A stretch of DNA of 64,000 nucleotides. Source: Candidatus Edwardsbacteria bacterium (GTDB taxonomy: Bacteria; Edwardsbacteria; AC1; EtOH8). This document shows, piece after piece, positions 4,169-32,558 of the stretch. The notes under the pieces are model-generated. The model made no database searches, was not told where the DNA came from, and was given only the letters and a program-made list of their open reading frames with translations. The translations under genes were made by a program, and so were the position numbers. The DNA lies in the NCBI GenBank assembly GCA_031082425.1, contig JAVHLB010000005.1, positions 100,927 through 164,926 on the forward strand, in the 5' to 3' direction. Position 1 is the stretch's first letter. Each line of letters starts with the position of its first letter.

Positions 4169-4323
4169 AATGGTTTTATAAATAATATCTAATTTTATTA
4201 CTTTGTTTCATAGCTTGACTTATCACAGGAGACTAAATGTTGTTCTAATTTAGTAATGGGCTTTGTTTAGCAACCCAAATAGCATCCTTGTCGTTCAAAC
4301 TCGAAGATTAACTATTTCCTGTA

Positions 4324-12339: not shown

Positions 12340-12415
12340 CTATTACTTTCACGATTTTATAAAATGGCGTTGCCTGGAAAATATTTACCCTTTGGTTTTA
12401 TAATATTCAAAACAG

Positions 12416-15757: not shown

Positions 15758-15786
15758 ATTATACTTAAAATGCCCGGGTTTGTCAA
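15758..15786 (-). promoter_or_regulatory. sigma70-type promoter, exact consensus TTGACA-N17-TATAAT (upstream of tal)
   Basis: The minus strand reads TTGACAaacccgggcattttaagTATAAT. The -35 box starts 5 nt after the Omp85 stop, and the -10 lies about 80 nt upstream of the tal ATG. Confidence 0.6.
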
Positions 15787-15790
15787 CCGC

Positions 15791-17470
15791 CTAGAAATCG
15801 CTGTTCAGGCTGACATGGACCTTGCCCTGTCCCCAACCGTCACCCCGCCCCAGCCCGTAGACCAGGCTGATCCAGCCCAGGGCGCTGTCCATCCGGAAGC
15901 CGGCACCGTATCCGGAGCGGTAGCCCCGCAGCCCCCTTTCCGGATCATAGTAATAGCCCAGGTCATAGAAGGGGAACAGCTCCAAACGGCGGTCCGGCAA
16001 ATAGCGGTATTCCAGATTGCCCCAGGCCAGCTGGTTGGCGATGAACTGCTCCTCCCAGTAGCCCCGCAGGGAGGCGGCCCCCCCCATGGAGAACTGGTCC
16101 GGCCGGGGAACGGGCTTTTCGCTGGAGATCACCGCCCGGAGATGGGCGACCGCCGAAAGGGCCTGCCGTTTGAAAATATCCCGGACCTGGCTGGCGTCCA
16201 GTTTGACCCGGGAGACCGTCAATTGAACCGAGGGGTTATAATATCTCTTGCGGCCATATTCGATCTCTAATTTTGACCAGAAGCCCCGGGGGCTGACAGA
16301 CCCGTCCCGGTAATCGGCCTCCAGAGACCACAGCGAGTTGTATTTGATGTTCCGCCCGATAAGCTGGGCCGACCCCGGCACCACCCTCACCGCCTCGGCC
16401 CCCGCTCCGGCGGTGAAATGCTCTCCGGCCGGAAGATCCGCCATCAACCTGCCCGAGCTTTGGGTGTAGGTGGAGTCCTCTATGCGGTGGCTGACCGCGG
16501 CGGTAAGGCCCAGGTTCAGGGAGAATATCCAGGGGGTGGAGAATTCGGCCGACAGCCGGCTGTTCTCCTGGCGCAGGCGCTGCCAGCTGATCTTGGCCCG
16601 GCGCCCGACCCCGCCCAGATTGGAGAAGGCCATGTCAAGGCTGCCGGTCAGCCAGCCGTTCTGCCGGGTCTGATCACGGTTGTATCCCAGGGCACCGAAG
16701 ATATTGTTGTAACGCCCTTCCTCCAGGGCGATCAGCAGGTTCTCGGATCCCGCCCGGTCGCCGGCGGTCAGAACTGGCTCGGACACCGTCCGGAAAAGCC
16801 CGCTCTTGATGAGTCTGGCCCGTCCCTTTTCAATGTTTTTCCGGTTGAACACCACTCCCGGAGCCAGGCCCGATAATCTCAGCAAAGCATACTCTTTGGT
16901 CTGGAGATTGCCGGAAAACCTGATCTTATCTATGTTTACCCGGGAGCCTTCCACGATCTGGTAACTGTAATCCAGCCGGCTGCCGGACAGGGAGAAATCC
17001 CCGACCGCTATTCTGGCATGGGGGAACCCGTTATCGGCGTATACCAGGGACAGCGCCGCAATGTCACTTAGTATCTGGCCTTCCGAAAGAGTACCCTTCG
17101 GCCGGACAGATAGCTGGCTTTCCAGGTAATTCCGACCCAGATAGCTGTTGCCGGTGATTATTATATTTCCGGCCCTGGGAATGATGCCGTTGGTTATCTT
17201 TACTTTGGCCTGGGTGCTGTCGGGCGAATACTCCATCTCCAGCCCGGCCAGAAAACATCCGGCCCGGTTCAATTCCGCCAGCAGTTTGTTCAACCCCGCC
17301 GCCAAGCTTTCCGAAGACAGGCCGGTTCCCGATTGAAAGCCGATAATGGCATTCATCTGCTTTGGGCTGAACGGAGACTGCCCGTCATAATCCATCCGCC
17401 GGATCACCGCCGGCCAGGCCGCCGAAGCCAGGGTCAGCACCATGGCCGCCGGCAGAATGTATGCTCTCAT
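15791..17470 (-). CDS. Omp85-family outer-membrane protein (POTRA + surface-antigen barrel)
   Basis: I moved the start to the ATG at 17470, giving the signal peptide MRAYILPAAMVLTLASAAWP. That is 1 nt after the upstream stop; the track start at 17542 lies inside the upstream gene. It has a POTRA-like N-terminal half, a Gly/aromatic-rich barrel, and the Omp85-like C-terminus GYGAGFRMDS...VSLNSDF. Confidence 0.75.
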   Translation of the reverse strand: MRAYILPAAMVLTLASAAWPAVIRRMDYDGQSPFSPKQMNAIIGFQSGTGLSSESLAAGLNKLLAELNRAGCFLAGLEMEYSPDSTQAKVKITNGIIPRAGNIIITGNSYLGRNYLESQLSVRPKGTLSEGQILSDIAALSLVYADNGFPHARIAVGDFSLSGSRLDYSYQIVEGSRVNIDKIRFSGNLQTKEYALLRLSGLAPGVVFNRKNIEKGRARLIKSGLFRTVSEPVLTAGDRAGSENLLIALEEGRYNNIFGALGYNRDQTRQNGWLTGSLDMAFSNLGGVGRRAKISWQRLRQENSRLSAEFSTPWIFSLNLGLTAAVSHRIEDSTYTQSSGRLMADLPAGEHFTAGAGAEAVRVVPGSAQLIGRNIKYNSLWSLEADYRDGSVSPRGFWSKLEIEYGRKRYYNPSVQLTVSRVKLDASQVRDIFKRQALSAVAHLRAVISSEKPVPRPDQFSMGGAASLRGYWEEQFIANQLAWGNLEYRYLPDRRLELFPFYDLGYYYDPERGLRGYRSGYGAGFRMDSALGWISLVYGLGRGDGWGQGKVHVSLNSDF

Positions 17471-17471
17471 T

Positions 17472-20400
17472 TTAAAAATAAGCCCTGACCTCCATCCTTC
17501 CGTTGTGAGAGGTTCTGCTCCCGGATTCTTTCCGGCCGTCATAGGAAGCGGATATGGTGAAATAGCTGTTCATGCGGTAATCGTAAGTTGCCCGCCAGGT
17601 CTTGGTCCAGTCCAGGGGGCGGGTGTAGCGGAACTCCGGCGGAATGTTTTCCCAAAACTGGTCGGCCTTCCGGTAGGTCGCCCCGGCCTCCAGCCTAAGC
17701 TGTCCGGACAGAGACAACTTCCGGGACAGGCCGGGGGACAACGACCAATGCTGGAAATTTGTGACCGGCACCGCCAGGTTATATCGCTGGGTCCTCTCTC
17801 TTCCGGCCTCCAGCCTGGCGTTCAGATCAAGCTGCCGGCTGAGGCTATGCAATATATCAGTCCCCGTAAAATCAAGCCGGACGCTGCTTTCCAGGCCCAC
17901 CAGCTCGTTGTAGGCCTCCGTTATATTCGATGAAAAAAAGAACGATAACCGGGTCCTGTCATTCAGGGGATACCCTAACTCGGCTTTCCGCTGATTGCTG
18001 CGGCGCACCGTGGCGGCGGACAGGGTCTGGTTGTCGCGGTCCCTGCGCCAGCGGTACAGCAGCCTGGTGTTCCAGCCGCCCCCGGCATAATAGCCGACAT
18101 CCCCCGAAAGCTCCATCGACCCGGAAATATCCCGGGGATGGCTTTCCAGCGACGGCAGGGTGGCCAGCAGGGCGGGGTTTAATTTTCTCAGGGATTTTAC
18201 TGCCGAAAGAGCCGCCAGGTCCAGCCGGAAACCGGTCCACCAGGCCGGAGAAAAGTACTGCCCCGGGTTGAACTGCAGATAGCTTCTGGCCGAGATCTCG
18301 CTGGCCCGGCTGGACGGCCCCTCCTCCAGTATCTGTTTCAGGTAGTTCCCGGCGGTGTCGGGATAGTAGGCTCCGGAAAGGGAATCGTAGCTGTAATCCC
18401 CGGCCCGGTCCGGCACCTTGACATACACCTCCTTCAAGAGGCGGGCCTCGGTGGCATTGAGGCTGTAATCCAATCCGGTTCGAAGGGACTGCTGCCAGGC
18501 GGAGTGATCCACCCTCAGCAGTCCCAGGTTGCTTTTCTGGCCCTGTCCCGGGGAGTTCGGCCGAAGGACCTTGCTGCGGTAGGTGTGATCCAGGCTCAAG
18601 GCCAGCGATCCCCCGGCGCCATACTTCAGAAAACTGCTGACCTGATCGGTATGGCTGGTTCCCTGCCAGACCTGCCCCAGACTGTCACGCGACAGGTCCT
18701 CGCGCCGGGAATAGCGGCTGCCCCAGTCAAGTTTTTTGGGGCGGCAGGCAAACCCCAGGAAGCCTTCCATTATCCGGCCTCCCGAAGAGGCCCCGCTGTG
18801 ATAATGGATATCGTCCAAAGTATTGCTGCCACCGGCCTGGTAACTGACAATTCCCCGGGAGAGATCAGCCTCTGTCCGGTGCTCCTGCCGTCCGGCCGAA
18901 GACAGCAGGCTGTCGATCCAGGCCCGGCCCAGCAGGGTCTTCCGGTAATCATAGGATACGCTCAGGGCCGGCCAGGGCTTGAAGCTGGTGGACCCCTGAT
19001 ACTTGCGCAGCCACAACCCGTCCCTCAGATTGAGCCGTCCCCAACCCCCGCCGACCTTAAGATATCCGGCCGGCCAGTAGCCGGCCTTATATTCCTGGGA
19101 ACGCTGCCCCTCCAGGGGATCATTTTTCTTGAGGCCGGTCCAGCCCCCCAGCCCCCAACGGCTCTCGAAATCGCCCTCGGCCAGGCCCAGCTCCGGCCGG
19201 AAATCGCTGCCGTATGATATGCCCCGGCCGGATACTTCAAAACCGCCCCAGCCCAGGGTGTCCCGGCGCCAGAGCAGATCGTACCTGCCGCCGTCGCCGG
19301 CATTGTCGCCGTCATCCTGCGCCGACAGGGTGTTCAGATCCTTCCAGGTCCTGGCCCCGTTGACCGCCAGCCGCCCCCCCTCCCAAAGGGTATTCAGCTG
19401 CAGTCCCAGCGATCGGAATTCTTCGGGACGGGGATATCTTTTCAGAGCCGCGTAGTCGCCTTTCCCCTGACCGGCATAGACAAAAGCCCCCAGGACACTG
19501 TCATAGAGGTAATCCCCTTTTCCCGAACCCATCCAGGTGAAGGACACGGCATATTGGCCCAAACCCCTTCCGGCATACAGGTAGACGGAGTCCGGTTTAT
19601 CGTAGTCCCCGGTGCCGCTGTCGGCCAAAGACCCGCCGTCGCCCCAAAGCTTTGTGGTATCGTCCCCGGCCTCGGTTAAAACCGATCTCCAGACATCGTT
19701 CATCTCCCCGGCTGACGGTTGTTTGGGGTCGTCGGATTCCTGGTAATAGGCGCTGCTTATCAGCAGATTCTTCCCGGCATACAGGTCGCTGCTGACAAAA
19801 TACAGGTTTCGGGAAAAGCTCTCCAGCGAGTATTCGAACTCGGCGGTGATCCTGGAATCATCGGTGATCATCCGGCGGGGGGTGAACAATATCTGTCCCC
19901 GGTCATAGTCCAGGGTATAATCGCGGTCGCTGCCCCGCTGCAACAGCGTCCCGTCCAGCCAGATCCGGTCGCTGTTGGCCAGCACCCGGAAGAAATTGGA
20001 CCCTTCCGGCACCGTAAGCTGGTAAGGACCCTGTATCCCGTCCCGGCCGGAGAAACGGACATAGCCCGGCTTCCCCTTGGCGCTGGACACCGAGAACCCC
20101 AGGGAATTGGACCGGTAGGAGAAGGCCGCATCCAGCCCCTGCAACTGGCGCTGGACGTTAAGCAGCTGCTGGCGGTGGTACGACAGGTCGTAATCGCCCA
20201 CCACGGCCGACCAGTTGGAGGAGTTGGCCCGGATGAATATCTTGTCGATCTGGCTCAGCTCCTGGGTGCTGCCGCTGACCGGCATTCCCTGGTCGGACAG
20301 CAGGGCGTTCACCTCCAGGTCCTCTCCCAGGCGCCCGTTGACCCTGACGTTCAGGGACTGGTCCAGCGACAGGTCCCTCCCGCTGCCCAGGCTTATTCCC

Positions 20401-20852
20401 ACTGATTTGCTGCCGCCGAATCTCAGCTGTCCGTCCCTGGCCTGCAGCCATTGGCTCAGGCTGTCGGATCCGGCCGGCCGGCCCGAAGCCGGCAAGGGAA
20501 TCAGTCCAAAGGTATCGGGGAATAACTGCAGATGCTGTCTGTGCGGCGGTATCTGCAGAGGCAGGGCCGAATAAATAACATTGAGAGTATCCCCCCTGGC
20601 CAGGGGCGATGCCAGGTAGATGGTTCCCTGGTTGTAATCGATGACGTAATCCAGATTGCGCAGCAGGAGCTTCCCCCCCACCAGGGCGCTGTCGCTGCCG
20701 GCAAAAATAAAGGGCGCCCCCAGCCGGTATTCATTCAGGGCGGGGTCGCCGGCCAGCATGATGCTTTTCCGGATCGGTGAGATGCTCTCCGCCCCGGAAT
20801 AACCCAGCCACAGGCCCAGGACAGCGATGGTTATGGCCGTGCTGGTCCGCAT
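17472..20852 (-). CDS. very large predicted outer-membrane beta-barrel protein, function unknown (possibly SprA-like)
   Basis: 1126 aa with a signal peptide. Composition is rich in G/S/Y/R/D with alternating patterns, and the protein ends ...EVRAYF (terminal aromatic). It contains two copies of a DY-x-(I/L)-DY-x-x-G-x-I motif (DYVIDYNQGTIYL and DYTLDYDRGQILF). Confidence 0.55.
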   Translation of the reverse strand: MRTSTAITIAVLGLWLGYSGAESISPIRKSIMLAGDPALNEYRLGAPFIFAGSDSALVGGKLLLRNLDYVIDYNQGTIYLASPLARGDTLNVIYSALPLQIPPHRQHLQLFPDTFGLIPLPASGRPAGSDSLSQWLQARDGQLRFGGSKSVGISLGSGRDLSLDQSLNVRVNGRLGEDLEVNALLSDQGMPVSGSTQELSQIDKIFIRANSSNWSAVVGDYDLSYHRQQLLNVQRQLQGLDAAFSYRSNSLGFSVSSAKGKPGYVRFSGRDGIQGPYQLTVPEGSNFFRVLANSDRIWLDGTLLQRGSDRDYTLDYDRGQILFTPRRMITDDSRITAEFEYSLESFSRNLYFVSSDLYAGKNLLISSAYYQESDDPKQPSAGEMNDVWRSVLTEAGDDTTKLWGDGGSLADSGTGDYDKPDSVYLYAGRGLGQYAVSFTWMGSGKGDYLYDSVLGAFVYAGQGKGDYAALKRYPRPEEFRSLGLQLNTLWEGGRLAVNGARTWKDLNTLSAQDDGDNAGDGGRYDLLWRRDTLGWGGFEVSGRGISYGSDFRPELGLAEGDFESRWGLGGWTGLKKNDPLEGQRSQEYKAGYWPAGYLKVGGGWGRLNLRDGLWLRKYQGSTSFKPWPALSVSYDYRKTLLGRAWIDSLLSSAGRQEHRTEADLSRGIVSYQAGGSNTLDDIHYHSGASSGGRIMEGFLGFACRPKKLDWGSRYSRREDLSRDSLGQVWQGTSHTDQVSSFLKYGAGGSLALSLDHTYRSKVLRPNSPGQGQKSNLGLLRVDHSAWQQSLRTGLDYSLNATEARLLKEVYVKVPDRAGDYSYDSLSGAYYPDTAGNYLKQILEEGPSSRASEISARSYLQFNPGQYFSPAWWTGFRLDLAALSAVKSLRKLNPALLATLPSLESHPRDISGSMELSGDVGYYAGGGWNTRLLYRWRRDRDNQTLSAATVRRSNQRKAELGYPLNDRTRLSFFFSSNITEAYNELVGLESSVRLDFTGTDILHSLSRQLDLNARLEAGRERTQRYNLAVPVTNFQHWSLSPGLSRKLSLSGQLRLEAGATYRKADQFWENIPPEFRYTRPLDWTKTWRATYDYRMNSYFTISASYDGRKESGSRTSHNGRMEVRAYF

Positions 20853-20856
20853 AGAG

Positions 20857-21714
20857 CTAAAACTTGACGAAGGTCAGGCTTCCATCCTCGGCCACAATTC
20901 CTCTGCCGAACGGGCTCAGGGCTACGGCATAGGGCCTCCGGAAGGGAACCCCCAACTGTTTGACCCACTGTTCGCCCTCATAAACATACACCCCGACCAT
21001 CCCCTGTTCCGGCTGGCAGACCCACAGCCGCCCCAGGTAATCAAAGCCCACCGCCTGGGGATGGTTCCCCACCGTTATCTGCAGGGTGCTGTGCCTGGCC
21101 CCGTAAAGATTATAGAAAATGATGATCCCGCTGCGCGAATCGGCCAGGGCCATAATGTTCCGGGAGGCATCAACCGAGATCGAGCCGGGACGGAAAACTC
21201 CCCCGCCGGACAGCTCGATGTGAAAACTCCGCAGGTCGTATCCTGACCGGTCAACCACCTTGACCTGGGCGTTGCTGCCGTCCAGCAGATAGATGTCACC
21301 GGAGATGGTGGCGGCGCCGGTCGTTGCCGAGATGCCGGAAAAGCCGGCTTCGGACAACTGCTGTCCTTCCCGGTCGAAGCACTTGATCTTCCGGTCCAGG
21401 TTGTTCATCAGCCAATAGCAGTCAGCCCCGCCCGCTATTAGAACATCCCGGGGCTGGGACAGATCGGAACGGAATAGTTCCGTTCCGTCCCAGCCGGCCG
21501 AGGCCAGAACCCAGCCGGCCGCCTGGGTATAACAGGCATTGCCCGATCGGTCGGCGGCCAGTGAGGAGACCTGGGAGATGATCTGGAGCGGATAGTGCAG
21601 TGCGATATCAACCGTCCGTTCATTCATCCTTGCCGAGGGCCTCGGCGGGTCGATATAGGCGGTGCAGGAAAGGGCCGCCAGGCCGAAGACCAGCAGATAT
21701 TTTTTTGGCTTCAT
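20857..21714 (-). CDS. beta-propeller (NHL-like) lipoprotein
   Basis: 285 aa with a lipobox (LAALSC). It has repeated short beta-strand blades (e.g. DIYLLD, NIMALAD, RLWVCQ). A 4-nt gap separates it from the downstream giant-barrel gene. Confidence 0.5.
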   Translation of the reverse strand: MKPKKYLLVFGLAALSCTAYIDPPRPSARMNERTVDIALHYPLQIISQVSSLAADRSGNACYTQAAGWVLASAGWDGTELFRSDLSQPRDVLIAGGADCYWLMNNLDRKIKCFDREGQQLSEAGFSGISATTGAATISGDIYLLDGSNAQVKVVDRSGYDLRSFHIELSGGGVFRPGSISVDASRNIMALADSRSGIIIFYNLYGARHSTLQITVGNHPQAVGFDYLGRLWVCQPEQGMVGVYVYEGEQWVKQLGVPFRRPYAVALSPFGRGIVAEDGSLTFVKF

Positions 21715-21733
21715 GATGTTCGATCCCCAACAA

Positions 21734-21779
21734 CCAAAAAATCCTCCGAGGCTGCATCCACAGGTGGGAGGATTTTTGG
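21734..21779 (-). terminator. intrinsic terminator-like hairpin inside the envelope operon
   Basis: The arms are CCAAAAAATCCTCC and GGAGGATTTTTGG. The GC core is ATCCTCC/GGAGGAT, and on the minus strand it is followed by a T6 run. It sits in the 78-nt gap between the 270-aa gene and the propeller lipoprotein gene. Confidence 0.55.
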
Positions 21780-21792
21780 TTTATCGCTGAAT

Positions 21793-22605
21793 TTAAAAAC
21801 TTTTTCCCAGGGCCACCCCGATATCGCAGCTGCGGGTGGTCAGGAACTTAAACTGCCAGCTCTCCCCGTGCTCCGCCCTTTTCAGCCGGTTTTTGTTGTA
21901 TCGCTTGGTCAAACGGGCGGCATTGACCGCCGAAAGAAGGTGGTTCAAAATGGCGGCCCCGTAGGAGTAGCTTATCCGGTGCAATGCCTCCTGGCTCCTG
22001 ACCCGCAGGCCCCGGTATTGATACCAATCAGCCTGGGTCTGCCAGGCCCAGTCATCGGGGGACCCGTATAGCAGGCCGGCCACATAGGTTTCCTGGGCCT
22101 GGGGGTCATCGGGGTAGATCATCCGGGCCTCGGCCCAGATATCCTCGTTGTACCAGTAACTGCTGGGGTATTCATAGATATTCTGATAGTAGATATCCTC
22201 GGTCTTTTCCGGGTTGGCCCCGGCCTGCTGGGCGGCAAAGTTGCGGTAGTCACGCTTCCACATCTCCCCCTGAAATTTGGAGAAGGCGGCGAAGGACCAG
22301 ATCATGGCCTCGGCCCCCAAAAAAACCTTGGCCTGGGTCCTGGCCCCGGCATAATACTCGCCGGCTCCCGGAAGGACCAGAGACATGAAGAAAGCTTTTT
22401 TTAAGGATTTCTTCGGGACTCGTATTCTTTCAGTTTGGCTGTTGGGATCCTCGGGAAGGGGTGCAACCGAAGGCCTGATCTCAACCTCATTGATTCTCAG
22501 GCTATCGGGCCTTGGCTTATCACCTTCAACCGCATTCCCCGCCGCCGGCAGGCTGCCGGCCAGAAATACCGCCAGCATAAATGTATAGATAGAATGCTTC
22601 GTCAT
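21793..22605 (-). CDS. hypothetical secreted/envelope protein (270 aa)
   Basis: Signal peptide, a hydrophobic SLVLPGAGEYYAG segment, a W/Y/D-rich middle and a terminal Phe. Its start overlaps the upstream M6 peptidase stop (ATGA). Confidence 0.5.
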   Translation of the reverse strand: MTKHSIYTFMLAVFLAGSLPAAGNAVEGDKPRPDSLRINEVEIRPSVAPLPEDPNSQTERIRVPKKSLKKAFFMSLVLPGAGEYYAGARTQAKVFLGAEAMIWSFAAFSKFQGEMWKRDYRNFAAQQAGANPEKTEDIYYQNIYEYPSSYWYNEDIWAEARMIYPDDPQAQETYVAGLLYGSPDDWAWQTQADWYQYRGLRVRSQEALHRISYSYGAAILNHLLSAVNAARLTKRYNKNRLKRAEHGESWQFKFLTTRSCDIGVALGKSF

Positions 22606-25600: not shown

Positions 25601-25862
25601 CCTTGATCACCAGCACCCTGATGGTGTCGGGGGTGGCGGCCTTGATGCCCTTTTTTGCCTTGGCGGCCCGGATCCCGCCCAGGATATCGCGGGTGGAGAC
25701 GGCGTCCCGGTAGCCCCTGGGCTGCTGTTTGATCTGTTCGGCAATGGTCATGGAGCTCTTCCAGGTCTCCTTCAGGCCCCTCAACTCATCACCCTGCAGA
25801 CTGCCGGCCAGCAATGCCGTTATCAAGGCTGGCCTGATTATGTAATTAAATGAAAACCTCAA
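22602..25862 (-). CDS. M6 (immune inhibitor A-like) metalloprotease with FG-GAP/VCBS repeats and T9SS-type C-terminal sorting domain
   Basis: 1086 aa with a signal peptide and zinc site HEFGHQLGLPDLYD. It has at least six GD(I/V)DGDG-type FG-GAP repeats. The C-terminal ~85 aa (YVYPNPARG...IKVFNLAGDLV...GVYLIRL) fit the CTD pattern. Confidence 0.8.
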   Translation of the reverse strand: MRFSFNYIIRPALITALLAGSLQGDELRGLKETWKSSMTIAEQIKQQPRGYRDAVSTRDILGGIRAAKAKKGIKAATPDTIRVLVIKAQFQLDSDINTTGNGHFDYAGNGEPVYTNNDPAQGHNLYYEPPHDSTYIHNQMLAMRNYYRAVSYGKLHIEFEQFPKGDTAAYTLPHQMSFYSDYYNNWDNWGAGLYFLFRDAIVAADQDPANISFRDYQSYMIIHAGSCWQTDPWGADIPSVFISLGDQPLIANAGLDTIYDGILDAATQSQDGMVLGSQGEFAHEFGHQLGLPDLYDYTYESAGLGEWELMSWGSFNMNAYVPPHLSAWCKVFLGWAEPIELKPGDDSEQVFAWVAKDPRAIVKIPINSHEYYLIENRRAWANPNDQVIYQDSIYGYGSDSSAVRVWRNGVLVKVDDYDMSLPFDLGKGGLLVYHVDDDLIRQRWYDNSLMTGNVKAIYLLEADHIQDLRHWVSSPYSTIASPYDAYFRGNNDRLDDASDPASLANDGSSTHISIYNISLPGDTMKARVKVGWSVPGFPAVLGDTVDWNSANYLTMHPGTDSSYKAVLAAGVLGRLYAWKADGSGLFNQERDTVLAGYDTISIRAEIARVKEGSYVYSSPAVADINLDGVPEVFITSSYSMTEGQVSGFSLIPQPDTVLSDMGNPYVVYHATPMPGFPVNVSAPIYSSVALGDVTGDDTLEVIAAGDDMKLHVWDHRGNMLTGFPYDLAMETRSTPALADIDPASPGKEIIVLSGDSRVFVFKGNGGLVAGFPALKPWADMVSSSPAVGDIDRDGNPDIICCTNKGISAVNRAGKMLKGWPIDFTGLYYTIISSPALGDIDGDGYLELAVAINNKLHVYNYNGTAVEGFPVEVSSSQLVQSSPVMADVDGDRLPEIVIGSPDNAVMAFNHDGTNAAGFPLTLGGRTYSTPLAFDLDGDTTGTELAIGCDDGMVYAWSLPSAFSIQTSHWTGFHNDQANSGYLNWDLSRHPLKISDKLLANAYVYPNPARGNFAKIRFSLNAQASVNIKVFNLAGDLVQEFSQPGFAGTENEILWKLGNLAFGVYLIRLEAVSTNDTQYQILKAAVIR

Positions 25863-25895
25863 GATGCCTCCCCCGATTCATAGATTTGAATGATT

Positions 25896-28370
25896 TTAAA
25901 ACACCGCCGACAGCGAGAATTTCTTGTTGAAATTCTGCAGGTCGCCGCCCGGCTCCATGGCAAAGTCAAATTGTATCTTGCGGAATCCCACCCCGGCGCC
26001 GTAGGTGGGTCCCTTGATGTGTCCCACTTCGTCCAGTACATAGCCGGCCCGCAGGGCCAGGCTGGCCGGGCCCAGGTACCAGTACTCCATCCCCAGATGG
26101 TGGACCACGTCCTGGAGCTCTTCCTTCCACGGCCGGTCGGGGGAAAGGTCGACGATGGTCTTGGTGAAGTCCCAGGCCGCGGTCAGTTTGGAGTATTTGC
26201 CGTCCAGGATGTCGTAAGCCGTGCCGACCCTGAGGTTGCGGGACAGGGGATCGGCCTCCTGGGCGTCGATATAGGTGAGCTTGGGCCCGATGTTCTGGAC
26301 GTTCAGGCCCAGGGCCAGACCGTCGAACGGCCCGTGATAAAGCAGCCCCAGGTCCACCGCCCAGGTGGTGGCGATCCCCTTTCCCTGCTCGCCCGGAGCC
26401 CCGAAGGGCGCCAGGTGCGAATAGATCAGCTTCAGGTTGATCCCGCCGGCCAGGTTGCTGTATATTTTGTTGGCATAGGTGAGGGTGGGCGAGAATTCGT
26501 AGCTGGAGAAGGTCCCCAGGACATGTTCATTTTCATCTATCCGCTGGTTGGTCCCTTCCGAGAGAAAGACCACATTCCCGCCGAAGACCCCCCAGTCCTT
26601 TACCGGCTGGGCATAGGCGATGAACTCATAATACATGTCCCCCACATCGCTCCAGATCTCGGAAAGCCAGGGGGAATGCATCATGGTGGCGTAATGCGGA
26701 GTGGGCTCCACCTTTCTTTTCAGCGAGCCGGGCAGGGCCGATTCCAGCAGTTTCCGGTTCAAGGCGGTAAGATCTTCAATGCTCAGATAATCGATCCCCT
26801 CCTGGATGTAGCCCCGGGCCGCCGGATCCAGGTCTTCATTTTTGAAATATTCGGCTCTATATAAAGCCCGGTTGGCCAGCAGCTGGTTCAGCCCTCCCAG
26901 CAGCGATTCCTTGTCCTCCCGGCTGACAACCTTGTTGGTCCGGTATCTGTCGCAGATGGCGATGAATTCAGAAGCCAGCAAGCTTCTGATATGCATCTGG
27001 GGCGAAGCCAGGGTTTTTTTGCGGTATGAGGCCAGGTCGGACGGAAACAGGATTTCCAGGGCCTCCCGTTTTGCCTTTAAGGCCGGCAGGTTGTCCTTCT
27101 GTCCGGCTTCCCCGGTTTCATAGCCGTTGATGACGGTATTCATGAATTCCAGAACGCCGGTCTCCTCCTCCGGGGTCATTGCCTGCTGGCCCTGATATTT
27201 CTTCAGGCTTTCCCAGCCCGGTTCCCCGATCTTATTGACGATATACAACGACAGGGAGTCTTTCCCCATTCTCTGGGCGTAAGGTTTGATGATCTCCGGC
27301 AGGTAGCTTTCCAGCAGGGTTCGGTTCAGCTTGATCGAGTTATCCGGGCCTATCTTCCGGTGATCGACCGTCAGGGATATCTGCCGGGGATAGGCGGCCT
27401 CCAATAGTTGCATATTGAATAATGCCAGGTCTTCGCCTTTGAGGCCGGCCGCCGATCTTTCTTTCAGGGCATCAGACAACACCACGTTAGCCAATCTGGC
27501 GGGCTGGTAAAGTCTCCCCTTGATTATTTTGCTGAACTCCGCCGCCAGGACAGCCGCCGCCGAATCAGCCGGCAAGCCGTTTTTCAGAACGGTCCTGCTG
27601 CGCGAAGCAAGCCTGCCCCAGAGGTATCGGGACAGGGGATCATCGGCCGCCACCAGTTGCTGGACCAGTCCCAGGGGATCGGCAAAATCCCGGGAGGCCA
27701 GCTCATTTTTATCCCGGGAATATTTACCGGTCAGTACCAGCTCCCGGACGGTTGGCGGGGTTTCCATTCCATCCAAAACCGACCGGCGATAGATATCCCG
27801 GTCGGACGATATCTGTTTGTTCAGGCGGTATAATACGGTCCATCTATCCTGCAGGGTCATCACGCTGTCGGAGTTGAAGATGGCGGCCCGGGCGGTGCTG
27901 TCCAGCCACCCGGATACCAGCCGGTAAGCCCGGCTGTCCCTGGTGGAATCACGCAGCAATTCGCCCAGCTTGTTCCAATCGGCAATATCCCCCGCGGTCA
28001 GCAGGGGCGACTGCCCGGCCTGCAGGATGATGGATGCGGGATCGAGCAGGTCCGGCTGCTGGAACAGATAGAAGGCGTCCTTCTCCTGCAGGTTGGACAC
28101 CAAGACCGCCCAATCCTTGATATCATCCTCCTGGAAATACTGGACCGCATCCGGCATCAAAAAGGCCAGCCCGGCCGGGTTGAAATAGGTGGCGGTGGCG
28201 TCGTCGGAGATGGCGGCGAAGGCGCTGCCCATACCGCTGGGCCTGGCCCCGGGACGGATCAAAAGGAAGATGGCCCCGCCCTCGGATATGGCGTAAGCCG
28301 GGCCGGTTGCCAAACCAAGGAACATCACGGCCAACAGCATAACGATGCCGGTTGATCTTTTAAACAACAT
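25896..28370 (-). CDS. PorV-family-like outer-membrane barrel with a large internal insertion
   Basis: 824 aa. The N-terminal signature FLLIRPGARPSGMGSAFAAISDDATATYFNPAGLAF matches the PorV/PorQ-family opening motif. A beta-barrel-like tail of about 266 aa ends ...FSLSAVF. About 490 mostly helical residues lie between them. Confidence 0.6.
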   Translation of the reverse strand: MLFKRSTGIVMLLAVMFLGLATGPAYAISEGGAIFLLIRPGARPSGMGSAFAAISDDATATYFNPAGLAFLMPDAVQYFQEDDIKDWAVLVSNLQEKDAFYLFQQPDLLDPASIILQAGQSPLLTAGDIADWNKLGELLRDSTRDSRAYRLVSGWLDSTARAAIFNSDSVMTLQDRWTVLYRLNKQISSDRDIYRRSVLDGMETPPTVRELVLTGKYSRDKNELASRDFADPLGLVQQLVAADDPLSRYLWGRLASRSRTVLKNGLPADSAAAVLAAEFSKIIKGRLYQPARLANVVLSDALKERSAAGLKGEDLALFNMQLLEAAYPRQISLTVDHRKIGPDNSIKLNRTLLESYLPEIIKPYAQRMGKDSLSLYIVNKIGEPGWESLKKYQGQQAMTPEEETGVLEFMNTVINGYETGEAGQKDNLPALKAKREALEILFPSDLASYRKKTLASPQMHIRSLLASEFIAICDRYRTNKVVSREDKESLLGGLNQLLANRALYRAEYFKNEDLDPAARGYIQEGIDYLSIEDLTALNRKLLESALPGSLKRKVEPTPHYATMMHSPWLSEIWSDVGDMYYEFIAYAQPVKDWGVFGGNVVFLSEGTNQRIDENEHVLGTFSSYEFSPTLTYANKIYSNLAGGINLKLIYSHLAPFGAPGEQGKGIATTWAVDLGLLYHGPFDGLALGLNVQNIGPKLTYIDAQEADPLSRNLRVGTAYDILDGKYSKLTAAWDFTKTIVDLSPDRPWKEELQDVVHHLGMEYWYLGPASLALRAGYVLDEVGHIKGPTYGAGVGFRKIQFDFAMEPGGDLQNFNKKFSLSAVF

Positions 28371-28403
28371 TGAATGAACTCCCCTAAAGTTTATCTTGTT
28401 CCA

Positions 28404-31400
28404 TTAACGCATTATCACTAATTTTCCGAACCCGGAGTTTTCCAGGCCGTCCTCCCGGGCGGTTATCTTATAAAGATACACCCCGTTGGCCGGGATGCTT
28501 CCCCGGTCGTCCCTTCCGTTCCAATGCACCTGGTTGTAACCGGCGTTCAGGTTCTTGGCGGGGATCTCCCGGATCAGGTTCCCGGCCACGGTGAATATTC
28601 TGATGACCACATCCCCCGGCTGGGAAAGCATGAAAGTAAAATAGGTCCCGTCCTTCAGGGGATTGGGAAAATTGTATATCGAGGATACCTTCAGTTCGGT
28701 CTCCACATTGATCGCATTTTCCCACAGTCCCTTCCTCAGCCTGGTATCATAGGCTTCCACCCGGACGGTATATTTGCCGCTGGTGATAAAATTATAGGCG
28801 TACTCCGCCGCGCCCGTTGCCAGGGTATCGTTGGAAAGGCTGTAGATAAAATCCTTGGCGATATCGGTTGAGATCAATTGTTTTCCGTCTTTTATAATGG
28901 TGAATTTTATCTCGCCGTATTTGGAGACGCCGGGGGCGATGTTGATGCCGCTTCTATCCGATATCTCCACCCGGAACCTGGCCTGGCTGGGCAGGTAATC
29001 GTTCTGCTTCAAGGCCAGCCCCCCGGCGTATACCGTTATCTTCGGGGCGGAAGTATCCTGATAAGTGGTGTCGGGATCGGGGTCTACCCCGCCTATCCAG
29101 ATGGTGTCGGAGGTAACCCCGGCGGCATCCACCGATGAATTCCAGGCATAGGCCCGGATCCCGGCTCCCGAAACCGGACCGGTATGCAGCTGGTCCGGTA
29201 TGTTGACGACTGTTTGAAAGCTGTCATTGACCACCGGGAACTCCCCCCGGAAGACGATGTCCCCGGGAAGCAGAAAGTTAAAATCGGTGTTCAAATGAGG
29301 GATATCCCTCAACTCCAGCATCACCCTGCCCGAAAAATTCCCGGAAGCCTGAACAATCCCGCTGATATTATATCGCCCCTGATTGTAAAGGGTGTCGGAG
29401 CTGATGGTGATATCAATCGGGTTTTGGGGCTGGCTGAACCTGATCCCGGGGTCGCCCAACAAAGTGTAGCACTCATTGTTGATAGGATCGACCGAAATAA
29501 ACTTAGCGTATAACACGGATGTTCCCAAGTCATAAAGCGAGTCAAATAGAGCGTGATATAAATTATAGTTCAAGTTTTCATTACGCCCCACAAACCCTTC
29601 ACGGGTGCTTCCAAAGGAGGCTACGGCCCCGCCGGAGGCCTTGGTGACCACCAGGGAATTGATGCACTTGTAATAGGGATTGTCGAAACGGGAGACGCCG
29701 CAGGAAGCGGTTATCACCAATGGCAGACGGCTGTCGTTTGCCAGATAGGGTATATCGGTATCACGAAAGTACCACTCGTGGCCCCAGGTCCACCAGGCGC
29801 CATGGCCGATAAAATTGATTATACCCGCTCCTTCATTCCAGAATTTGTTAAGATCGGCCCTGGCTTTGGGCTTGTAATCACCCTCCAGGGGATAGCTGAT
29901 CCCATATACCTTCTGAACAGAATATATTTCCGGCAAGTATCCGTATAATGTTTCAGTTGCGTTCTTATCATCATCATCAGCTACCAACAATGCCTGAGAC
30001 CGCCAGGGATAAAAGGTGTTGGGTGAATCGTAATTGATCGTTTTATTTACCACCGCCCAGGCCTCCTCGCTGTTGGCTGCCGGCAGGCGGGCGATGGAGA
30101 ACTGGGGATACAGGCCGGTGGTAAAATATGCGTACCAGTCATCGTGGGAATGCAGTTGATACTCCTTCAGCATAAAATAAAGAACATCCTCTTGATGGGC
30201 GGGCACCAGATTGGAATTGGCGATGGAACGGTCGATATGCCGGTAGTCGTAGGTGCCGTTTCCAAAAAGAACGCACCAGACCGGGCTGGTTCCGCCGGAG
30301 TTTGTATAAATATATTTAAGAAAGTTGCGGATGGCCGCCGGGTCGCTGAGACCAAAGCCGAACTCATTGTATATCCATGAAAGTTTTACCGCCCGGGCCG
30401 GTTGCTGCTCCAACTTGTTTTTATGATGGTTCAACAGTGCCTGGGCCTGGGGCCAAAACTGATCGGCAGCGATGATAAGATATTTAACATCGGCCAATGA
30501 TTCTCTCAAACGATTTGGATCATAGGCCTCAATTCTGCTCGGTTTAAGCCAGACAGAAGCTGCGGAAGCGCAATATTTATTGTCTTTTTTCCACCCATCG
30601 TCAAACTGAATATAGGCCGGAAACATCTTTGAGGTCTGCAGAGACTTCGGGGCCTCGGGATCAGAGATATCCAGCAATTGGCAGCTGTCGGAATTGAACC
30701 CGGTCAGATAGAAACGGTTAACATATTGGCCCGAAGAATCAGCTCGGAACTTAAGGTCACCTTTGTAGGCCTGATATTTGCGTGAGTAGGCTAATTCCGC
30801 CCAGTTGAAATATATGGCATCGGTAGTATCCGCATCTTCCTTTAAAAGTCTTATTGTCAGAGCGTTGGTTGCATCCTGCAGATTATCGATACTCGTTGAA
30901 TCGGTCAATTCCCTGCTGCTGATCGGCTCGTGACCACCATCGGCTGTCGGTCCAGGACTGCCGGTCCACGATAAATCTTTAGTGGTTAGCCCATTCAATC
31001 CCCATACAAAATGATGCTTGGAATATATGCCGGCCCTTAGTGATATGCGCAACTTCCCGTTTGTTCCTTGTACCCCGGGGGTGGCCAGGTCATACGAATA
31101 TGTCCGGCTGTTTTCCGAAGTGGCCCTTCGCATATTGGCCCAGTAATAGAACTCGCCGGAATTGAAGGGATTGAACTTGTCCTGTTCAAAATGCAAAGTA
31201 TCGGCAAAAGACTGTAACGGTTGCAGGTTTCCCGGGCCGGGTTCGCAATTTCTGACCTGCATGCGCAAACCGTTACCGCCGCCCCAGGTCAGCCAATAGC
31301 AGTTGGTGTCGGCGTAGGGGTTGAAGAACTGCGGGGTGGCCAATTTTGAATTCTTGTGCCAGCCCGACAGGTCCTGCCCGTAGAATATTATCTGATCGCC

Positions 31401-32318
31401 CTGGTCGAACCGCCCGTCCTCCTGCCCCCGGACCAATATGGCCACCTGTTTCATGGTGTCCGGCGCGGCGATGTTCCGGTCCTTGGGCAGGGCCGCCGAG
31501 CCGCCGGAGAAGATCTTGATGGTCCGGGGATCGATGACCGCCGGGTCGATGCCGTTGCGCAGCAGATACTCATAATCCAGGCGGTAGACGCCCTCCTGCA
31601 GCACCGATAATTTGTACCAGACGGAATGGCCGTCAAAGGGGTCGGCCGCTTTTGATTTGATGGTCTTTTCCGAGATCTTCCAGTTGCGGCACTGGGGATA
31701 ATTGATCAGCAGTTTTGAGAATACCGGGGCAAACGCCGGATCCGGCCGGGGATGGTTATCCCGCCCGGCAATATCCCAGCTGACCCTGACCAAAATTCTT
31801 TTGTTCAGCCTTAATACGCCCGCCAACGGATCGTATTGGACCGGGCTCATCTTTATTCCGGCGATGTTATATTGCCGCAGCCTTTCGACCGACGCCAGGA
31901 TGGCAATTGCCCCGGGAAACATGCCCGCCCGGCCGTAGATCGAAGGGTTTTTGATGTTTTTATATTCGCCCAAGCCGGGCTGCTCAGATGATACCAGTGC
32001 GGGGACCGGGGCCAGAGAAAAATCGCGGATATCCTCCGATTCAACGGATATGACCTGCACCTTGACCCGGGCCCCTTCCGGAACACCCAGGCTGATCGGG
32101 TGCTCCAACGTAGCCGGCGCGCCGGGCTCCTCAGCCGTCTGGCAGCCGGGCAGAAATATGGTCTGCTCCCCATCGACATTAAGCTTGAACTCCGGCTGTT
32201 CCATGCTGTATTCGATGAGGGCGGAGTAGGCATCGGCCGAAACCAACCTGGTCTCCGCCCTAAGCGGGCCGCAGGCCGCCATGATCAGCATCAGGATATA
32301 TGTGATCTTTTTTATCAT
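28404..32318 (-). CDS. C25 (gingipain-like) cysteine peptidase, PorU-like, with T9SS-type C-terminal domain
   Basis: 1304 aa with a signal peptide. The C25 catalytic region has a His (NFIGHGAWW) and a Cys (VITASCGVSRF). The C-terminal ~90 aa (NFPNPLKDGTYF...IRIFTVAGNLI...WNGRDDRG...GVYLYKI) fit the CTD pattern. Confidence 0.8.
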   Translation of the reverse strand: MIKKITYILMLIMAACGPLRAETRLVSADAYSALIEYSMEQPEFKLNVDGEQTIFLPGCQTAEEPGAPATLEHPISLGVPEGARVKVQVISVESEDIRDFSLAPVPALVSSEQPGLGEYKNIKNPSIYGRAGMFPGAIAILASVERLRQYNIAGIKMSPVQYDPLAGVLRLNKRILVRVSWDIAGRDNHPRPDPAFAPVFSKLLINYPQCRNWKISEKTIKSKAADPFDGHSVWYKLSVLQEGVYRLDYEYLLRNGIDPAVIDPRTIKIFSGGSAALPKDRNIAAPDTMKQVAILVRGQEDGRFDQGDQIIFYGQDLSGWHKNSKLATPQFFNPYADTNCYWLTWGGGNGLRMQVRNCEPGPGNLQPLQSFADTLHFEQDKFNPFNSGEFYYWANMRRATSENSRTYSYDLATPGVQGTNGKLRISLRAGIYSKHHFVWGLNGLTTKDLSWTGSPGPTADGGHEPISSRELTDSTSIDNLQDATNALTIRLLKEDADTTDAIYFNWAELAYSRKYQAYKGDLKFRADSSGQYVNRFYLTGFNSDSCQLLDISDPEAPKSLQTSKMFPAYIQFDDGWKKDNKYCASAASVWLKPSRIEAYDPNRLRESLADVKYLIIAADQFWPQAQALLNHHKNKLEQQPARAVKLSWIYNEFGFGLSDPAAIRNFLKYIYTNSGGTSPVWCVLFGNGTYDYRHIDRSIANSNLVPAHQEDVLYFMLKEYQLHSHDDWYAYFTTGLYPQFSIARLPAANSEEAWAVVNKTINYDSPNTFYPWRSQALLVADDDDKNATETLYGYLPEIYSVQKVYGISYPLEGDYKPKARADLNKFWNEGAGIINFIGHGAWWTWGHEWYFRDTDIPYLANDSRLPLVITASCGVSRFDNPYYKCINSLVVTKASGGAVASFGSTREGFVGRNENLNYNLYHALFDSLYDLGTSVLYAKFISVDPINNECYTLLGDPGIRFSQPQNPIDITISSDTLYNQGRYNISGIVQASGNFSGRVMLELRDIPHLNTDFNFLLPGDIVFRGEFPVVNDSFQTVVNIPDQLHTGPVSGAGIRAYAWNSSVDAAGVTSDTIWIGGVDPDPDTTYQDTSAPKITVYAGGLALKQNDYLPSQARFRVEISDRSGINIAPGVSKYGEIKFTIIKDGKQLISTDIAKDFIYSLSNDTLATGAAEYAYNFITSGKYTVRVEAYDTRLRKGLWENAINVETELKVSSIYNFPNPLKDGTYFTFMLSQPGDVVIRIFTVAGNLIREIPAKNLNAGYNQVHWNGRDDRGSIPANGVYLYKITAREDGLENSGFGKLVIMR

Positions 32319-32331
32319 ATTTTCAATAATA

Positions 32332-32362
32332 ATAAAAACCGGTATCCCGTTAAGAGACCCGG
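32332..32362 (-). terminator. weak terminator-like hairpin 14 nt upstream of the PorU-like start codon
   Basis: The CCGG...CCGG closing pairs have imperfect inner pairing. The hairpin is flanked by an A-run and a T-run, and the minus strand continues TTTTTATTATTATT. Confidence 0.3.
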
Positions 32363-32529
32363 CTTTTGTGGAGTTAAGATAACAGTAAAAGCCAGTGTCG
32401 TTTAAATATTTATATGCCGAAACGTGATATTTATCAACTTTAAGTTGGTAAATACCTCCAAGTGCTAAATATTTAAACCAGGGTCACTGACTTTAAGATA
32501 CTTATATGATCTCCATTTAATCTACCCTA

Positions 32530-32558
32530 ACTATAATCTAAATTGGGTTATTTGTCAA
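32530..32558 (-). promoter_or_regulatory. sigma70-type promoter TTGACA-N17-TATAGT (head of the PorU-like operon)
   Basis: The minus strand reads TTGACAaataacccaatttagatTATAGT. It starts 17 nt after the pilD stop and lies about 210 nt upstream of the PorU-like ATG. Confidence 0.5.

Follow-up and report, generated by a model that had tools for sequence, protein, structure and literature searches.

A composite seven-gene envelope operon of Candidatus Edwardsbacteria joins PorU and PorV homologues to an SprA-like giant barrel and an Omp85 paralogue

Background

Among the described systems nearest to the operon analysed here is that for type IX secretion (T9SS), in which transport requires energy input from a motor, PorL/M, and a ring, PorK/N, and in Bacteroidota the porU and porV genes are adjacent. 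SprA/Sov, characterised structurally in F. johnsoniae (PDB 6H3I, 6H3J, 8GL6 and 8GL8), is a single-chain giant beta-barrel of about 2400 amino acids with a cap exceeding 150 kDa on its extracellular side. In a published survey (PMC12611786), every FCB phylum other than Chlorobiota had representatives reported to carry SprA.

We analysed a 64-kb stretch (the window) of a contig listed at 252 kb from Candidatus Edwardsbacteria, an uncultured groundwater bacterium. We read the operon found there as a composite in which one module (A) would carry out type IX cargo shuttling and removal of the C-terminal domain (CTD) and encodes one cargo, while the barrel of a second module (B) would be an SprA-like conduit; to this reading we assign a probability of roughly 0.4.

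Layout of the operon

The block spans positions 15791-32318 on the minus strand and consists of seven same-strand genes, each with a signal peptide. All seven ORFs of the initial annotation were recovered, and its junctions, measured again in transcription order, were 33 nt, 33 nt, a 4-nt ATGA overlap, 78 nt, 4 nt and 1 nt. The last of these requires that the Omp85 gene start at the ATG at 17470: its longest ORF (15791-17542) encodes 583 aa, and direct reading from this ATG gives 559 aa with the signal peptide MRAYILPAAMVLTLASAAWP; the NCBI gene call for a 96%-identical orthologue (locus L086) takes the same start. In the orthologues the M6 metalloprotease gene is called from a start three codons further in, so that its product has 1083 aa and the gap before it widens to 42 nt.

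Two modules make up the operon, separated by the 78-nt gap (21715-21792). Module A encodes a PorU sortase, a PorV homologue, a CTD-tagged M6 metalloprotease and a DUF5683-like protein, and module B an NHL-propeller lipoprotein, a barrel of 1126 aa and an Omp85 paralogue with three POTRA domains. Among the other ORFs of the window that were scanned against NCBIfam, none matched PorK/L/M/N or full-size SprA, in agreement with what had been noticed initially, nor any other T9SS component, and neither PorQ nor PorZ is present in the locus. The absence of SprA and PorKLMN genes from 64 kb of the 252-kb contig is the sole basis for the idea of a compact machine replacing SprA and PorKLMN.

A promoter-like element (TTGACA-17-TATAGT, 32530..32558, minus strand) had been placed at the head of the block, upstream of porU. 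It is real as a consensus match (11 of 12 positions), but comparable matches are not rare, 15 being found in the 18.5-kb region against 10.1 expected. A sigma-70-like site with all 12 consensus positions (TTGACA-17-TATAAT, 15758..15786, minus strand) lies directly 3′ of the Omp85 stop, where it delimits the 3′ end of the block and probably serves a transaldolase gene.

Module A: sortase, shuttle and cargo

The first gene (28404..32318, minus strand) encodes a protein of 1304 aa with a signal peptide, a propeptide, a C25 domain and a type-A CTD. Annotated initially as a C25 peptidase with a T9SS-type CTD, it is a true PorU sortase: it scores 623.7 bits against NF033707 (cutoff 420), and its His/Cys dyad is intact, GHG and ...ITASC being aligned with GHG and ...ITATC of P. 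gingivalis PorU. Peptidase_C25 was matched at 1.9e-75 together with Propeptide_C25, and the CTD matched TIGR04183 with 24.4 bits (cutoff 23). Residues 229-1302 align to P. gingivalis PorU (6za2_A, 4.5e-45), and residues ~22-183 form an extra N-terminal propeptide of the gingipain type.

The PorV homologue (25896..28370, minus strand, 824 aa) belongs to the PorV/PorQ family, as its PorV signature had suggested, with 195 bits against PorV_fam (cutoff 90) and 129 bits against the PorV equivalog, under the 250 required there. Between a conserved N-terminal segment and the barrel it carries an all-alpha insert of ~470 aa (residues ~80-545). In the AF2 model the pLDDT was 76 overall and ~90 in the helical insert, and the barrel (residues 560-823) matched best F. 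johnsoniae PorV (8gl6_F, 3.3e-10, TMt 0.57). Such a long form turned up solely in 45 full-length relatives (~815-855 aa), those named being Edwardsbacteria/TA06.

The third gene (22602..25862, minus strand; 1086 aa from TTG or 1083 from ATG) encodes an M6-type metalloprotease with FG-GAP repeats and a CTD, domain searches agreeing with the initial reading (Peptidase_M6, FG-GAP_3 and Por_Secre_tail). Its CTD scores 31.4 bits against TIGR04183 (cutoff 23), HEFGH is intact at residue 283, and the protein is related to NF052323 (T9SSA_dep_M6i; 399 bits, under 600); it is a probable cargo of type IX secretion. The start of the next gene (21793..22605, minus strand) overlaps the M6 stop by ATGA. Its secreted product of 270 aa is weakly DUF5683-like (21 bits, under the cutoff of 26.7), and homologues occur only in loci that hold module A (L003, L005-L011, L084-L089, L096, L125 and L131).

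A secreted protein of 580 aa is encoded outside the block (12416..14158, minus strand), in a stretch of lower GC (0.437 for 12001-14000). The initial annotation took it for a third CTD protein: a 29-bit match to the CTD region of PorU speaks for this, but the type-A CTD stays sub-threshold (TIGR04183, 19.5 bits, cutoff 23), so that it has a probable CTD and is a possible further cargo.

Module B: lipoprotein, giant barrel and Omp85 paralogue

The propeller lipoprotein (20857..21714, minus strand, 285 aa) is of the NHL type and has a lipobox-like ...LAALSC; its orthologue in L096 matches NHL at 6.5e-35. An iterative search placed a member of this family directly upstream of the barrel in every non-Bacteroidota locus examined, L002 and L013 excepted; in L003 the two lie in one reading frame, an apparent fusion.

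The 1126-aa protein (17472..20852, minus strand), predicted initially to be a barrel, is a giant SprA-like outer-membrane beta-barrel of about 38-40 strands, modelled confidently by AF2 (pLDDT 81, pTM 0.67). Its four best Foldseek matches in the PDB are all SprA (1.5e-13 to 2.6e-9), the top E-value being about five orders of magnitude ahead of other barrels, and the next match is a TonB-dependent transporter (4e-8). The TM-scores against SprA are low, about 0.23, and length alone may favour the alignment of any very large barrel to the largest one solved. The SprA model TIGR04189 was matched partially, with 37 bits (cutoff 200), residues 40-83 corresponding to model positions 595-638; in the divergent barrel of L003 residues 663-715 correspond to positions 601-651, equivalent in position to the match of the window barrel. 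Sequence searches with the barrel gave no match in Pfam or the PDB, its family has no Pfam or NCBIfam model, and a search of the family profile against the PDB did not recover F. johnsoniae SprA. The family comprises 5806 clusters at 50% identity, with members of ~1100-1200 aa, spread over many FCB-type lineages, Bacteroidota included.

TonB-dependent transporters and SusC being the next-best structural matches, we considered whether barrel and lipoprotein could form an uptake channel, by SusCD or giant-porin logic, importing large products of PorU/PorV-attached surface enzymes such as the M6 protease. The pairing of a lipoprotein gene with a barrel gene recalls SusCD or LptDE, and the same operon encodes the protease cargo. 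However, the transporters rank far behind SprA, domain searches detected neither a TonB-dependent receptor nor a plug domain, and the tight linkage to a dedicated Omp85 would be left unexplained; we hold this reading to be very improbable.

The Omp85-family paralogue (15791..17470, minus strand, 559 aa) starts 1 nt after the barrel stop and has ~3 POTRA domains followed by the Omp85 barrel. The possibility that it is the housekeeping BamA with a known partner, which would have assigned it to a familiar system, was rejected: it scores 92.6 bits against TIGR03303 (cutoff 297), and in L013 the paralogue is accompanied, 7 kb away, by the start of a canonical BamA. It has no TamA or TamL match, passing none of the TamA, TamL and ShlB models, and its nearest PDB sequences are remote.

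Conservation of the cassette

Module B is a widespread, previously unannotated outer-membrane cassette: of the 28 metagenome loci with enough flank, 23 have the barrel gene immediately upstream of that for the Omp85 paralogue. The full seven-gene order, tightly packed, is conserved in Edwardsbacteria/UBP2/TA06-type MAGs (barrel identity 38-96%); the loci showing it are L005-L011 and L084-L089, and variant arrangements of both modules occur in L003/L125 and L096/L131.

The initial annotation had called the PorU/PorV pair hard-wired to the Omp85 and barrel, and this holds in a few lineages only: about 17 of 23 cassette loci have no PorU/PorV beside them (module A being sought within 5-6 kb). It is therefore possible, if doubtful in our estimation, that the cassette is an independent outer-membrane machine, that a canonical T9SS elsewhere secretes the CTD proteins and that the cassette adjoins porU/porV through the joint regulation of envelope genes rather than through a shared pathway. 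Bacteroidota orders in which canonical T9SS is known have many barrel homologues, solitary ones that do not adjoin porU/porV; the PorU of the window, an orthologue of canonical PorU, points to a canonical system, and, with SprA reported for all FCB phyla but one (PMC12611786), Edwardsbacteria may well have it. Against independence stand the SprA-like fold of the barrel and the adjacency of both modules, which a rough NJ tree of the barrels shows for at least three deep branches with ~30% identity between them. The gene packing argues likewise, the M6 and 270-aa genes overlapping and just 78 nt separating the latter from the cassette, as does the recurrence of cargo genes: some ten further loci have CTD-bearing ORFs close to the cassette, in Flavilitoribacter the barrel is followed directly by the gene of a type-A CTD cargo, and in one group of Flavobacteriales loci type-B CTD cargo genes adjoin the barrel.

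The neighbourhoods of the cassette or barrel fit a role in outer-membrane protein biogenesis equally well, since they include rpsB-tsf-pyrH-frr in L001, the BamA of L013 and, in some Bacteroidota, the PorG-UppS-BamA-Skp-Skp operon, just downstream of which a barrel homologue lies. By TAM/BAM logic the Omp85, with its BamA-like POTRA domains, would be the active insertase, and the barrel and propeller its partners or dedicated client, serving the assembly of large surface proteins, the substrates of PorU/PorV among them; in L096 and L131 there is also a second Omp85-like protein, which carries Peptidase_MA and PD40 domains. We consider this unlikely: no TamB/DUF490 or BamD-like partner is present, and in Cloacimonadota and Bacteroidota the barrel persists where this Omp85 is missing, so that it has its own function and does not need the paralogue for its assembly.

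A putative conduit for CTD proteins

All seven proteins cross the inner membrane via Sec, as their signal peptides show. If the barrel is an SprA-like conduit serving PorU and PorV, the Omp85 paralogue would insert the giant barrel or stay bound to it, to judge from the near-obligate gene adjacency, and the propeller lipoprotein may bind the barrel, to which both adjacency and the apparent fusion in L003 point. Folded CTD proteins would then pass through the barrel, a role that fold similarity and recurrent linkage to porU/porV make conceivable; PorV would collect the cargo there, its helical insert, presumably periplasmic, perhaps acting as a scaffold, and PorU would remove the CTD. Against the conduit, the sequence link to SprA is thin, the TIGR04189 match covering one small domain, and the window holds no gene for the PorL/M motor or the PorK/N ring. 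A translocon role is plausible but unproven: the barrel family occurs in Bacteroidota orders known for canonical T9SS, and the cassette is usually found without PorU/PorV beside it.

Comparison with known systems

As for TamA-TamB, TamL and TpsB-TpsA, a short Omp85 with ~3 POTRA domains is encoded beside a very large beta-rich partner. However, the window Omp85 passes none of the corresponding models, and its partner is itself a giant barrel, not a periplasmic bridge of the TamB kind or an exoprotein such as TpsA. The Aim operon of P. gingivalis (PorG-...-BamA-Skp; PMC12773653) likewise links outer-membrane insertion genes with T9SS components in the genome, and in some Bacteroidota a barrel homologue follows an operon of this type; Aim itself includes a small barrel, PorG, along with the housekeeping BamA, but neither a giant barrel nor PorU/PorV.

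The trio of PorU-like, PorV-like and M6-like CTD proteins is shared with the NCBIfam "putative type IX sorting system" (PorU2, NF052324; PorV2, NF052325; NF052323), but all three window proteins score under the cutoffs. The window PorU is a canonical PorU, and NF052323 describes a T9SS-dependent M6-like inactivated metalloprotease, whereas the window M6 domain, keeping HEFGH, is not inactivated.

Compared with the PorU-PorV pair of Bacteroidota, PorU passes the equivalog and keeps both dyad and CTD, the PorV barrel matches a solved PorV, and the two genes are again adjacent. The differences are the gingipain-like propeptide of PorU, the helical insert of PorV, seen only in the Edwardsbacteria/TA06 clade, and a locus without PorQ or PorZ.

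Compared with SprA, the window barrel is half as long, which leaves no room for the extracellular cap, it falls far under the HMM cutoff with no detectable sequence match to solved SprA, and a dedicated Omp85 and an NHL lipoprotein accompany it in place of PPI, Plug, SprE or SkpA; its family occurs also in Bacteroidota orders known to carry SprA. Both are nevertheless single-chain giant beta-barrels, SprA providing the four best structural matches, both have the small beta-domain recognised by TIGR04189, and the window barrel shares its operon with porV and porU.

Organisation of the seven-gene block and its surroundings

The initial annotation described seven co-directional ORFs, and all of them were found as it had listed them, on the minus strand (15791-32318). 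The junctions in transcription order also agreed with it, being 33 nt, 33 nt, a 4-nt ATGA overlap, 78 nt, 4 nt and 1 nt. Precisely, the 1-nt gap between the barrel and Omp85 genes requires that Omp85 begin at the ATG at 17470, which gives 559 aa and a clear signal peptide, and not at the longest-ORF start at 17542; the NCBI gene call of a near-identical genome has the same start. Signal peptides were present at the N-terminus of all seven products, the 285-aa one with a lipobox-like LAALSC. The promoter-like element proposed at 32558-32530 (minus strand) is present as TTGACA-17-TATAGT, and a perfect 12/12 promoter-like match after the last stop codon (15786-15758, minus strand) bounds the block; matches to the promoter consensus are only slightly commoner in this region than in shuffled sequence. 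In what follows, module A indicates the first four genes and module B, or cassette B, the last three, and handles from L001 to L131 indicate loci carrying relatives of the barrel or of the Omp85 protein in genome-collection and metagenome sequences.

The flanking genes are housekeeping ones (RimO, prepilin peptidase, transaldolase, transketolase halves, topA, type IV pilus ATPases, LolA, FtsK, alaS, recA), and Rfam and tRNA scans of the whole window gave no matches. Candidatus Edwardsbacteria bacterium RifOxyA12_full_54_48 (GCA_001780135.1) has a protein with 96% identity to the PorV-like one, and on the contig of that genome the seven genes recur with unchanged upstream neighbours.

Some features of the flanks were recorded separately. 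The transketolase is split into C-terminal and N-terminal halves (8969-9949 and 14218-15030, minus strand) about 4 kb apart, which enclose an unknown 200-aa gene, an aldo-keto reductase, a nitroreductase and a lower-GC gene for a 580-aa protein with a probable T9SS C-terminal sorting domain (CTD). An AT-rich island (4001-6000, GC 0.31 against ~57% around it) holds a 573-aa AAA ATPase (4324-6045, minus strand) that resembles the retron Eco8/PtuA/MAD3 defence effectors and is probably a horizontally acquired defence gene. At 55849-56598 (minus strand) there is a 249-aa protein of the geranylgeranylglyceryl/heptaprenylglyceryl phosphate synthase family (NF003198, 256 bits against a cutoff of 247), an archaeal-type ether-lipid enzyme, here in a bacterium; genes of this type have been reported in bacteria of the FCB group.

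Module A

The 1304-aa protein (28404-32318, minus strand), annotated as PorU-like, passes the equivalog model NF033707 with 623.7 bits (cutoff 420). Its residues 229-1302 align to P. gingivalis PorU (6za2_A, 4.5e-45), the catalytic His/Cys dyad is kept, with GHG and ...ASC in register with GHG and ...ATC of 6za2_A, and the protein has its own type-A CTD (TIGR04183, 24.4 bits against 23; FlgD_ig, 1.1e-9). Judged by its sequence, it is a genuine PorU.

The 824-aa protein (25896-28370, minus strand), in which a PorV signature had been noticed, scored 195 bits on the PorV/PorQ family model, above the cutoff of 90, and 129 bits on the PorV equivalog model, whose cutoff is 250. The best PDB matches of its C-terminal barrel were to F. 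johnsoniae PorV (Foldseek; 8gl6_F, 3.3e-10, TMt 0.57; 6h3i_F, TMt 0.60), and by this match to solved PorV the model is that of a FadL-like barrel. AlphaFold2 (pLDDT 76) gave a confident all-helical domain at residues ~80-545; this domain of ~470 aa is inserted between an invariant N-terminal segment and the C-terminal barrel. Only 45 full-length relatives of this long form were found (~815-855 aa), the named ones being of Edwardsbacteria/TA06 type. The insert is an all-alpha repeat domain, and its structural matches beyond the barrel classes were only helical-repeat-plus-barrel proteins, such as BcsC and PelBC.

The 1086-aa protein consists of an M6 domain, with HEFGH intact at residue 283, FG-GAP repeats and a type-A CTD. 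The 270-aa protein has a match to DUF5683 below threshold, and its homologues are confined to loci that also carry PorU/PorV/M6 genes.

The giant barrel and its likeness to SprA

The 1126-aa protein has no Pfam match, and its sole notable NCBIfam match is a partial one to the SprA model TIGR04189 (37.1 bits against a cutoff of 200), in which barrel residues 40-83 correspond to model positions 595-638; a divergent family member in locus L003 matches the same region. The AlphaFold2 model, built from a 32-sequence alignment, had a pLDDT of 81 and a pTM of 0.67, and DSSP assigned to it about 40 long beta-strands after residue 144, this number being approximate. When the model was compared with the PDB by Foldseek, the four best matches were four SprA entries (1.5e-13 to 2.6e-9), with low TM-scores of about 0.23. 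Sequence searches of the PDB chains with the barrel and with its family profile did not find SprA. Since the TM-scores are low and the family profile finds no SprA in the PDB, we treat the modelled barrel as SprA-like in architecture, with one small domain in common.

The next Foldseek match after SprA was a TonB-dependent transporter (4e-8). The reading of the barrel as an uptake channel appears very improbable next to the better SprA matches. We also considered LptD as a candidate and rejected it, as no OstA/LptD HMM matched and LptD came at Foldseek rank 13.

A small beta-domain motif (…SD…L.G.LL.R..DY.IDY..G.I…) occurs twice in the barrel protein, at residues ~48-80 and ~289-321, and one of the copies is what the SprA HMM recognises. 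The internal-repeat alignment scored 56, where shuffled sequences gave a mean of 33.5 (sd 5.2) and at most 57; a duplication of the small domain within the barrel is weakly suggested by the sequence.

The partners of the barrel in cassette B

The 285-aa protein belongs to an NHL-propeller family, and a propeller gene lies directly upstream of the barrel gene in all the non-Bacteroidota loci examined, including Cloacimonadota, except L002 and L013. In L003 the propeller shares the reading frame of the barrel, and the two are apparently fused, with a frameshift.

According to the initial annotation, its proposal would fail if the 1126-aa protein and the Omp85 belonged to an unrelated, well-known system, such as the housekeeping BamA with a known partner. 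The Omp85 protein is not a housekeeping BamA: its score on TIGR03303 is below the cutoff (92.6 bits against 297), the N-terminal part of about 280 residues corresponds to roughly 3 POTRA domains, where BamA has five, and in L013 the Omp85 paralogue stands beside the barrel while a canonical BamA starts 7 kb further on. TamA/TamL was rejected because neither model matched at E <0.01 and the downstream neighbour is transaldolase, not TamB (DUF490), and TpsB (FhaC/ShlB) because the ShlB score was 19.4 bits against 22.7 and a TpsA-like gene is absent. That cassette B is a BAM/TAM-like biogenesis module appears quite improbable.

A metagenome scan with an alignment of the Omp85 paralogues gave 508 relatives. 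Upstream sequence of 4.5 kb or more was available at 28 loci; the barrel was immediately upstream of the paralogue in 23 of these, the propeller was present in 21 and module A in 6. In three loci with cassette B (L001, L096 and L131), a gene for a UbiA-family prenyltransferase directly follows the paralogue.

Distribution of the barrel family

The barrel family comprises 5806 clusters at 50% identity with E <=1e-3, and 2642 with E <=1e-30. The best 150 representatives are mostly ~1050-1240 aa long, and the few that are shorter are partial matches. The family has neither a Pfam nor an NCBIfam model, and all its named members are annotated as 'hypothetical protein' and have no Pfam domain. In a collection of species-representative genomes, 315 stretches encode a barrel relative; most of the 80 that were listed belong to Flavobacteriales, Chitinophagales and Bacteroidales. 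NCBIfam found nothing in the Bacteroidota members tested, and clustering of the neighbours of Bacteroidota barrel loci gave no universal neighbour.

In L034 (3231-13069) a ~1160-aa barrel homologue is just downstream of the PorG-UppS-BamA-Skp-Skp ('Aim') operon, with only an oppositely oriented exonuclease III gene in between. In L016, L025, L027, L028, L032, L038 and L074 a ~830-aa Omp85 is placed as in L034, the correspondence being in the Omp85 position only. In the Flavobacteriales loci L029, L045, L049, L063, L068, L070 and L082, ORFs of ~2330-2600 aa are convergent to the barrel homologue (at about 14.2-22 kb; 4.4-11.4 kb in L063), and a related neighbour cluster extends over 15 loci. 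We considered these ~2400-aa ORFs as SprA candidates and rejected them as type-B CTD cargo: both of those tested (L029 and L068) have type-B T9SS sorting domains.

Linkage of modules A and B

The synteny that the initial annotation proposed to examine was observed: the full seven-gene order is kept in L005-L011 and L084-L089, with barrels 38-96% identical. Variant arrangements of the two modules occur in L003 and L125, the PorV of L003 being of normal size (316 aa), and in L096 and L131, which have an added Peptidase_MA + PD40 + Omp85-like protein. In the latter two loci (L096, 1250-4282; L131, 1391-4477) this protein of ~1010-1028 aa has a copy of the 270-aa family on either side; it consists of Peptidase_MA_2, PD40 propeller repeats and, at its C-terminus, an Omp85-like barrel.

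The link between PorV and the barrel is purely one of gene linkage, that is, one operon plus adjacency of the two modules on at least three deep branches of a rough neighbour-joining tree of the barrel. On these several branches the loci with both modules are interleaved with those having cassette B only, a pattern that favours a functional tie over chance. The alternative of an independent outer-membrane machine, merely co-regulated with porU and porV, agrees with the many loci in which cassette B stands by itself and takes the adjacency to porU and porV as shared regulation; we regard it as possible, if doubtful.

Some ten other loci also have ORFs with a CTD close to the cassette, a count with no background rate for comparison. 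A type-A CTD cargo gene is directly 3' of the Flavilitoribacter barrel, and type-B CTD cargo genes adjoin the barrel in a group of Flavobacteriales loci.

Proposed function

In the best-supported reading, to which we assign a probability of about 0.4, the barrel would be a conduit related to SprA, assembled by its dedicated Omp85 and bound by the NHL lipoprotein. PorV and PorU would be its partners in Edwardsbacteria and a few further lineages, with CTD proteins, the M6 protease among them, as the cargo. The analysis itself establishes PorU and the PorV homologue, the CTDs, cassette B with its conservation and the fold class of the modelled barrel; physical contact among the components, transport direction, a role for the PorV insert and the energy source are inferred.

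The initial annotation had made the stronger claim of a compact system replacing SprA and PorKLMN. In agreement with it, neither PorK/L/M/N nor a full-size SprA was found among the window ORFs scanned, nor were the PorL/M motor, the PorK/N ring, SprE/PorW, PorT or further T9SS components outside the block. Against it, Bacteroidota orders known for canonical T9SS also have the barrel family, cassette B is mostly without module A nearby, and the absence of SprA and PorKLMN refers to the 64-kb window. Moreover, a survey reports SprA in all the FCB phyla sampled except Chlorobiota (PMC12611786).

An extension of the conduit reading, which we consider unlikely, is that the ~1150-aa family is a second, minimal T9SS-like translocon ('mini-SprA'). 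Edwardsbacteria and many other uncultured FCB-type lineages would then export CTD proteins through a self-contained gate made of this barrel, the Omp85 and the NHL lipoprotein, and Bacteroidota would retain the barrel as an unrecognised paralogous channel. If so, lineages without a full-size SprA would have the barrel as their only translocon, which would show the minimal T9SS pore.

Novelty and comparison with known systems

PorU, PorV and CTD cargo were already known, and T9SS genes in FCB phyla outside Bacteroidota have been reported (PMC11285876). Our literature search gave no description of the family of ~1150-aa SprA-like barrels, of the cassette that joins it to an NHL lipoprotein and a dedicated Omp85, of a PorV of the long form or of an operon in which modules A and B are fused. 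A 2021 preprint (10.1101/2021.02.17.431615) mentions a superfamily, left without a name, whose barrels have 40 strands or more; the present family may overlap with it.

The barrel family may bear on the origin of SprA and on which of its parts are essential. Half-size SprA-like barrels tied to PorU and PorV in several deep lineages would offer a natural minimal pore for testing, a possible second route for CTD proteins and a further case of an Omp85 paralogue reserved for one giant client; Bacteroidota members are accessible to experiment, for example protein CRP01_06855 of the culture-collection strain Flavilitoribacter nigricans DSM 23189. Even if the barrel were unrelated to T9SS, the lipoprotein-barrel-Omp85 cassette would be a widespread, uncharacterised envelope machine of candidate phyla.

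Compared with P. gingivalis PorU, the PorU of the window has an extra N-terminal gingipain-type propeptide (Propeptide_C25, residues ~22-183; 4ief_A at 1.3e-7), outside the region in which the two proteins align. The M6 protein is related to NCBIfam NF052323 (T9SS-dependent M6-like inactivated metalloprotease), but it scores 399 bits, below the cutoff of 600, and retains its zinc motif, so that it does not qualify as a member. The usual PorV is compact, of ~350-400 aa and without extra domains, whereas the homologue in the window, with its helical insert, reaches 824 aa. Among known single-chain outer-membrane barrels SprA is the largest, and no other T9SS pore is known; it has 36 strands, about 2300-2600 aa and a large extracellular cap, whereas the barrel of the window falls below the cutoff of the SprA model and has only 1126 aa.
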